Below are positions 56,546-56,855 of a stretch of DNA of 64,000 bases, one piece after another. The DNA comes from Octopus vulgaris (lineage: Eukaryota), in the NCBI GenBank assembly GCA_951406725.2, contig OX597836.1:3658001-3722000 (forward strand), given 5' to 3'. Within the stretch, counting starts at the first letter, position 1. Every line of letters begins with the position of its first letter. The notes beneath the pieces are model-generated. The model saw only the letters and a program-made list of their open reading frames with translations, had not been told where the DNA came from and searched no databases. Position numbers and translations under genes: made by a program.

Positions 56546-56855
56546 GTGGGAGACGGAGAGATATTGTATATCTCTCGGTACTGGGCCTCGGTGGTGTTCC
56601 TGACGCCCCCCACGCCGAGATGTCTGAACTGACAGAGGGCAGCGGTGTGGGGATCAGGAAAGAGCCCCCTGTCAATGCCAAAAGCCCATATTTTGGGCAT
56701 TTAGGGGCTTTGGCACAGGCACAGGTTGCCTCGAACTTGTGCTTTAAAGTTGAAGTTGCCGAAGGGATGCAGGTTACCTGGGAAACTATGCTCGTTGATG
56801 GCAAGTTGTTTGTGGAGATACCCACCGGTATATTACCAGAAGGTTCTAAAGAAGG
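56546..56855 (+). CDS. OAZ: Antizyme exon 2: end of ORF1 (WETERYCISLGTGPRWCS*), +1 frameshift, then ORF2 (DAPHAEMSELTEG...VTWETMLVDGKLFVEIPTGILPEGSKEG)
   Basis: A pyrimidine tract and CAG acceptor end at 56545. The hallmark sequence GGG CCT CGG TGG TGT TCC TGA C GCC CCC CAC (GPRWCS*/DAPH) is present, as is the antizyme motif LFVEIP-G-LPEGSKE. The donor GG|GTAAGT is at 56856. Confidence 0.97.
56583..56604 (+). promoter_or_regulatory. Antizyme programmed +1 ribosomal frameshift site with 5' stimulatory context (UCC-UGA-C)
   Basis: GGGCCTCGGTGGTGTTCCTGAC closely matches the metazoan antizyme shift context. ORF1 stops at 56601-56603 and ORF2 resumes at 56602 in the +1 frame. Confidence 0.96.
56608..56674 (+). 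promoter_or_regulatory. 3' mRNA pseudoknot downstream of the shift site, resembling the extended invertebrate (class II) antizyme pseudoknot
   Basis: Stem 1 pairs CCCCACGCCG (56608-56617) with CGGTGTGGGG (56643-56652): 10 bp, one G-U. Stem 2 pairs TGACAGAGGGC (56630-56640) with GCCCCCTGTCA (56664-56674): 10 of 11 positions paired. The stems are interleaved. Confidence 0.88.

Follow-up and report, generated by a model that had tools for sequence, protein, structure and literature searches.

Antizyme Frameshifting Pseudoknots

Ornithine decarboxylase (ODC) antizyme is produced by +1 ribosomal frameshifting, which rises with polyamines and so completes a feedback circuit acting on ODC and on polyamine uptake, and structures lying very close 3′ of the shift site must be partly unwound while that site is decoded (PMC5009743, in the part available). 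The invertebrate antizyme pseudoknot designated class II by Ivanov and Atkins occurs in Mollusca, and the prototype of its subclass IIa is that of Crassostrea gigas (PMC1874602, section 10; PMC5009743, legend to Figure 14). In this oyster, both stems are required for stimulation, the sequence of stem 1 matters, and disrupting stem 2 is equivalent to removing the whole pseudoknot (PMC1874602). Class II elements tend to be larger than those of class I (60 nt) by virtue of loop 1, sometimes exceeding 90 nt with a loop 1 of more than 35 nt, and have given rise to stem-1-only offshoots in Priapulus and Rhodnius through loss of stem 2; for the mammalian antizyme pseudoknot, a spacing of 3–5 nt is crucial (PMC1874602, in the sections available). 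The literature searched on antizyme yielded no cephalopod pseudoknot, however the supplements of PMC1874602 may include one; the available parts of PMC4551804 (abalone) and PMC11818727 add nothing on structure.

The element described here lies in the window, meaning the whole 64 kb stretch of Octopus vulgaris DNA that was analysed. Its two stems likely fold in the spliced mRNA into a class II H-type pseudoknot that would stimulate +1 frameshifting at UCC-UGA, as the oyster pseudoknot does.

Antizyme Gene Structure

The locus is a spliced Octopus ODC antizyme gene with a UCC-UGA +1 frameshift site. The following features were assigned:

46032..46123, + strand, coding part of antizyme exon 1; ORF1 starts at the first ATG (46032), and loose ends of RNA contigs match the 3′ end of the exon
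56546..56855, + strand, antizyme exon 2 (310 nt), with the end of ORF1, the shift site, the pseudoknot and the start of ORF2
56598..56604, + strand, +1 frameshift site UCC-UGA-C; the ORF1 stop is at 56601–56603 and ORF2 occupies the +1 frame from 56602
63849..63934, + strand, antizyme exon 3, in which the ODC_AZ domain continues (PF02100, 26.1 bits against a cut-off of 24.2); matched by RNA loose ends

When exons 1 to 3 are joined, ORF1 comprises 49 codons ending in GTGPRWCS-stop and is identical in reading to XP_029649766.1; past its stop, only the +1 frame remains open into the PF02100 domain. Searched singly against Pfam, the exon-1 and exon-2 pieces gave no match, and further antizyme exons fall outside the window, beyond exon 3. 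Both exon-2 splice sites coincide with contig ends in six of eight sequencing runs, whose loose ends agree with exons 1 and 3, while one of the remaining runs has the 3′ junction only and the other has neither. RNA contigs join exons 1, 2 and 3 with no insertion or deletion at the shift site, which is covered in six of the eight runs. The ORF2 peptide of exon 2 shares 100% identity with Octopus sinensis XP_029649766.1 and O. vulgaris CAI9739228.1, 96% with O. bimaculoides and 91% with Argonauta, bearing out an assignment to octopus that had been made from the letters of the window.

The in-frame ORF1 ATGs at 46032 and 46098, 22 codons apart, resemble the pair of start codons in mammalian antizyme 1 (PMC5009743, in the part available). 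A further ATG at 56620–56622, within loop 1 of the pseudoknot and 16 nt past the ORF1 stop, is in the ORF2 frame and is retained in every aligned octopod and sister-cluster protein. Three database models of 148–149 amino acids (P0023–P0025) start at this loop-1 ATG and are probably truncated annotations of the frameshifted gene; alternatively, reinitiation there may yield a frameshift-independent antizyme. Intron 2 contains a degenerate piece of eukaryotic large-subunit rRNA (57136–57539, + strand; Rfam RF02543, 67–72 bits) that is probably a dispersed pseudogene fragment.

Predicted Pseudoknot Geometry and Class Assignment

The pseudoknot was compared with 22 homologous loci from metagenomes, its parts being as follows:

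56604..56607, + strand, spacer of 4 nt between stop and stem 1; 3–4 nt in homologues with stem 1
56608..56617, + strand, stem 1, 5′ strand, pairing with 56643–56652
56618..56629, + strand, loop 1, 12 nt; 15–33 nt in the 22 homologues, in steps of 3
56630..56640, + strand, stem 2, 5′ strand, pairing with 56664–56674
56641..56642, + strand, hinge, 2 nt (AG); 1 nt in 18 of 22 homologues
56643..56652, + strand, stem 1, 3′ strand, pairing with 56608–56617
56653..56663, + strand, loop 3, 11 nt; the same length in all 23 aligned rows
56664..56674, + strand, stem 2, 3′ strand, pairing with 56630–56640

Stem 1 is fully paired (10/10; nine Watson-Crick pairs and one G-U), and stem 2 has ten of 11 positions paired, with an A.C mismatch at 56636/56668. 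On recount, both stems, the loops of 12, 2 and 11 nt and the 4-nt spacer proved exactly as given in the preliminary description, however the pseudoknot that it had called long is compact, its total span of 67 nt being the shortest of the 23 aligned (70–88 nt in the 22 homologues). In the 18 homologues with a 1-nt hinge, the second hinge base forms an eleventh stem-1 pair; the corresponding position in octopus is an A.G mismatch, giving a hinge of 2 nt by standard pairs, which a non-standard A.G pair could restore to 1 nt. Directly 3′ of stem 2, a 5-bp hairpin is predicted at 56683–56698 that is absent from the homologue alignment.

The octopus element shares with class IIa its occurrence in a mollusc antizyme with UCC-UGA as shift site, a pair of interleaved, conserved stems immediately 3′ of the stop and a loop 1 of variable length. 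The primary paper on the Crassostrea gigas prototype is reportedly that of Ivanov et al. (2004, J Mol Biol 339:495). Proteins of C. virginica and Mytilus carry the same codon signature with a loop 1 one codon longer; in a comparison of protein rather than RNA sequence, C. virginica reads DAPHA-6aa-TEGSGVG-3aa-EPPV, where octopus has five amino acids in the first interval. Octopus differs from class IIa in a hinge of 2 nt instead of 1, also present in four of 22 homologues, in having UGA-C instead of UGA-U (one of 23 rows), and in a loop 3 complementary to the shift site; its 67-nt span and 12-nt loop 1 are short by the standards of the class. Class IIb of aphids, fleas and psyllids occupies the same position and has a stem 1 similar to that of IIa (PMC1874602), but combines a hinge of 4–14 nt with a different stem 2, whereas octopus has a 2-nt hinge and a stem 2 of the widespread type. 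The class I element of vertebrate antizymes 1 and 2, to which the octopus pseudoknot would act similarly, is likewise of H-type and lies 3–5 nt past the UCC-UGA stop, with a comparably compact span of 60 nt against the 67 nt of octopus; the antizyme pseudoknot classes are treated as unrelated in the available sections of PMC1874602.

No antizyme family was matched in Rfam scans of the octopus region at E ≤ 5, of the whole window, or of eight homologous loci at E ≤ 1. The Rfam antizyme family (Antizyme_FSE) presumably models the vertebrate class I element. Found at the locus were interleaved stems 4 nt past the stop, compensatory changes with variable loops and a molluscan host; the strict 1-nt hinge of IIa, the 4–14-nt hinge of IIb and a class I Rfam match were not. 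Because the hinge fits neither IIa nor IIb, the element is filed as class II, IIa-like. Judged from sequence by its position, phylum, covariation and protein signature, the octopus pseudoknot belongs to class II. The view of it as the octopus version of an invertebrate type distinct from the vertebrate one is supported by 22 homologues that have these stems in an identical register, by the codon signature common to the oyster and mussel proteins and by the missing Rfam antizyme match.

Homologue Sample

A scan of metagenomes by shift-site pattern, which fixed four letters of the 5′ strand of stem 1, returned 65 loci that were sorted, according to whether ORF2 was open, resemblance to antizyme proteins and 5′ context, into 37 antizymes and 28 chance or non-antizyme matches; for three loci (L025, L031 and L051), ODC_AZ lies beyond the fetched flank and the antizyme call is weaker. 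The same pattern had no matches in viral contigs. The alignment consists of the window and 22 distinct loci picked by eye for a one-piece layout. Left out were two duplicates (L050, L054), three loci with loop-1 introns (L021, L023, L060), one with a very long loop (L020), five with stem 1 and a divergent or unclear stem 2 (L002, L035, L006, L037, L061), and four antizymes without stem 1 (L018, L039, L047, L052). Stem 2 is not universal: besides these five divergent or unclear antizyme loci and the four loci without stem 1, it is only 4/11 paired in L049, and this patchiness agrees with the patchy distribution described in the available sections of PMC1874602.

Some loci of this sample are unusual in themselves. 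L049 retains an intact stem 1 (11 pairs, one compensatory change) with only four of 11 stem-2 pairs in register, and adds another stem-1-only offshoot to the ones described from Priapulus and Rhodnius. In the antizyme-like locus L020 (about 74–314, − strand), all ten stem-1 pairs enclose about 170 nt, far exceeding the loop 1 of more than 35 nt given in PMC1874602 (sections available), and stem 2 shows seven of 11 pairs in the usual register. The genomic antizyme loci L021, L023 and L060 each have an intron inside loop 1; when splicing was modelled for L021, the usual stem spacing appeared only once the 80-nt intron splitting loop 1 was removed. In L023 and L060, the splice acceptor either fell beyond the flank retrieved or could not be placed.

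Covariation in Both Stems

Across the 23 rows, 90.7% of 505 alignment cells are paired, compared with 38–54% in slid registers. Two-sided changes occur in 11 of 22 pairs, and the covariation score was reached by none of 500 shuffles. Each stem passes when tested alone, with two-sided changes at seven of 11 pairs in stem 2 and at four of 11 in stem 1, the latter also being recovered by RNAalifold. Covariation had been proposed in the preliminary description as a check on the fold, and both stems come through it in the 22 metagenome homologues and the window. Just 4 of 20 branches were strong in the protein tree built from outside the pseudoknot, a resolution too poor for event counting, and 14 kin groups set by eye were used instead; with one sequence per group, the median p was ≤0.003 and the worst 0.013. 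As the covariation shuffles ignore relatedness, more weight is given to the silent-site test described below.

Individual pairs illustrate the pattern. Four stem-2 pairs link two third codon positions, among them 56631:56673, which is seen as G-C, C-G, U-A, A-U and U-G. In two groups, U-A takes the place of C-G at 56616:56644, where Gly>Ser goes together with a silent change. The 56636/56668 column is mismatched in 14 of 23 rows, mostly as A.C, and in L064 the A.C is displaced by one pair, a hint that stem 2 tolerates or favours a mismatch near its centre.

Among close relatives, the contigs of eight sequencing runs contain six variable sites, in three of the runs; none is in the stems, where so few as about 0.8 would be expected, and one is a hinge G>A at 56642 (run X19). 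Conversion of A56636 by A-to-I editing would, by computation, add about 7 kcal/mol of stacking to stem 2. The GAG context is unfavourable for such editing, and no A>G difference was present at A56636 in any of the eight runs, in contigs that drop rare variants.

Stem Strength and the Role of Stem 2

The strength of the stems was scored as summed stacking energy by a purpose-made simple H-type finder. The value for both stems, −43.9 kcal/mol, was reached in 0 of 2000 dinucleotide shuffles and in 0 of 2000 synonymous recodings that left the peptide unchanged; when both strands of the window were cut into 3196 overlapping tiles of 87 nt, one other tile reached it, and both stems appear in the same register in 0.01% of 200,000 synonymous recodings. 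Taken singly, stem 1 has a z of −4.4 and stem 2 a z of −1.63, a modest gain over shuffles. A covariance model built from the 22 homologues, with the window left out, has a single match in the 64 kb, the octopus site, at 62.9 bits (E about 2e-12, by rough calibration), and gave none under E 0.5 among the 28 chance loci.

The energy of the pseudoknot is a rough estimate of −31.6 kcal/mol using a Dirks-Pierce-like penalty, and ranges from −26 to −34 under other penalties. With the shift site masked, the best nested fold comes to nearly the same energy (−30.0 kcal/mol), and the fold of the free mRNA is stronger than the pseudoknot estimate (−39.9 kcal/mol). The near equality bears on the suggestion that in octopus stem 1 works alone as a hairpin stimulator, with stem 2 a relic out-competed by local nested pairing, since the nested folds place parts of the stem-2 strands in small hairpins at an energy near the pseudoknot estimate; loss of stem 2 is, moreover, described in PMC1874602 (sections available) and seen in L049. 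Such a reading is nonetheless improbable, as octopus stem 2 keeps ten of 11 pairs with a score at or above that of 21 of the 22 homologues, retains all four of its third-position/third-position pairs, and would hold at least ten pairs in just 2% of synonymous recodings.

Loop 3 Complementarity to the Shift Site

Nucleotides 56654–56660 of loop 3 are a perfect 7-bp Watson-Crick complement of the shift site at 56597–56603 (−9.5 kcal/mol), while the corresponding pairing in all 22 homologues amounts to only −4.1 to +0.6 kcal/mol. The resulting helix belongs to the predicted minimum-energy fold of the free mRNA, and by its geometry would exclude stem 2. It could be part of a switch specific to octopods, in which loop 3 pairs with the shift site in untranslated mRNA, extending stem 1 and excluding stem 2, until an arriving ribosome opens the helix and the pseudoknot forms just in time, tuning frameshifting. 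The seven Watson-Crick pairs, far stronger than in any homologue, and the GIRKE codons common at the protein level to O. sinensis, O. vulgaris, O. bimaculoides and Argonauta speak for such a switch; if true, frameshift efficiency would vary with ribosome traffic, and the literature searched yielded no such mechanism for antizyme. We nevertheless think it unlikely to be real. The complementarity was noticed after the fact, the helix is found in none of the 22 homologues and no covariation is seen for it, and equally strong pairing arises in four of 72 synonymous versions of loop 3 and in 457 of 20,000 random 11-mers (2.3%). Judging from their codons, the sister cluster (GIIKE) and P0027 (GISKE) could not retain an intact helix. 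The complementarity is probably due to chance (about 2–6%, post hoc).

RNA Constraint on ORF2 Codons

Fourfold degenerate sites in the stems are nearly frozen, with nine of 11 at 0–0.83 bits and the other two forming the covarying terminal pair 56631 and 56673, whereas 13 downstream control sites in the conserved domain (17 sequences) lie at 1.5–2.0 bits and the spacer site at 1.77 bits. The invariant fourfold sites are 56610 (C, 23/23; free in the search pattern), 56634 (A, 21/21), 56649 (G, 22/22) and 56652 (G, 23/23), and the stem codons read Pro CCC in 23/23, Gly GGG in 23/23, Val GTG in 22/22 and Thr or Ala xCA in 21/21. Over the same 23 rows, loop 1 ranges from 12 to 33 nt with loop 3 fixed at 11 nt. 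Silent sites frozen in the stems and free downstream are the synonymous-site conservation that the preliminary description had put forward as a further check, and with the coupled silent and replacement changes they support its proposal that the structure constrains the N-terminal codons of ORF2. This comparative pattern indicates that selection acts on RNA pairing in both stems, and RNA structure, rather than protein function, is the likely cause of most of the conservation in the ORF2 motif DxPHA...(T/A)EG(S/N)GVG...EPPV. The converse, that conservation is driven by this N-terminal ORF2 protein motif with the stems arising incidentally from G/C-rich codons for Pro, Gly and Val, may draw on the good retention of EG(S/N)GVG and EPxV in 28 aligned proteins and on the 6.7/10 and 7.5/11 pairs that synonymous recodings already average, but is very hard to credit given that stem fourfold sites are invariant where downstream sites under stronger protein constraint are saturated, that two-sided changes alter amino acids while keeping pairs, and that the four antizymes without stem 1 also lack the peptide motif.

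Proposed Mechanism and Significance

By homology with the oyster element, the octopus pseudoknot is inferred to stimulate frameshifting. Reasoning from homologues, a ribosome with UCC in the P site and the slowly decoded UGA-C in the A site would encounter stem 1, which begins after another 4 nt, at its mRNA entry channel. This stem would have to open in its lower part, with stem 2 bracing it against unwinding, and the pseudoknot would in this way slow the ribosome at UCC-UGA-C and favour a +1 slip over termination. High polyamines would raise the slip, and the full-length antizyme so produced would inhibit ODC, target it for degradation and lower polyamine uptake (PMC5009743, in the part available).

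The octopus element is a real, ordinary new example of a known recoding signal, and leaves the understanding of antizyme regulation unchanged. As the shortest natural class II example in the sample, at 67 nt, it is a handy subject for probing and structural work, and the 23-row alignment could seed an Rfam family for a class without an Rfam match. It adds cephalopods to the range of this recoding signal and offers direct evidence that selection has acted.
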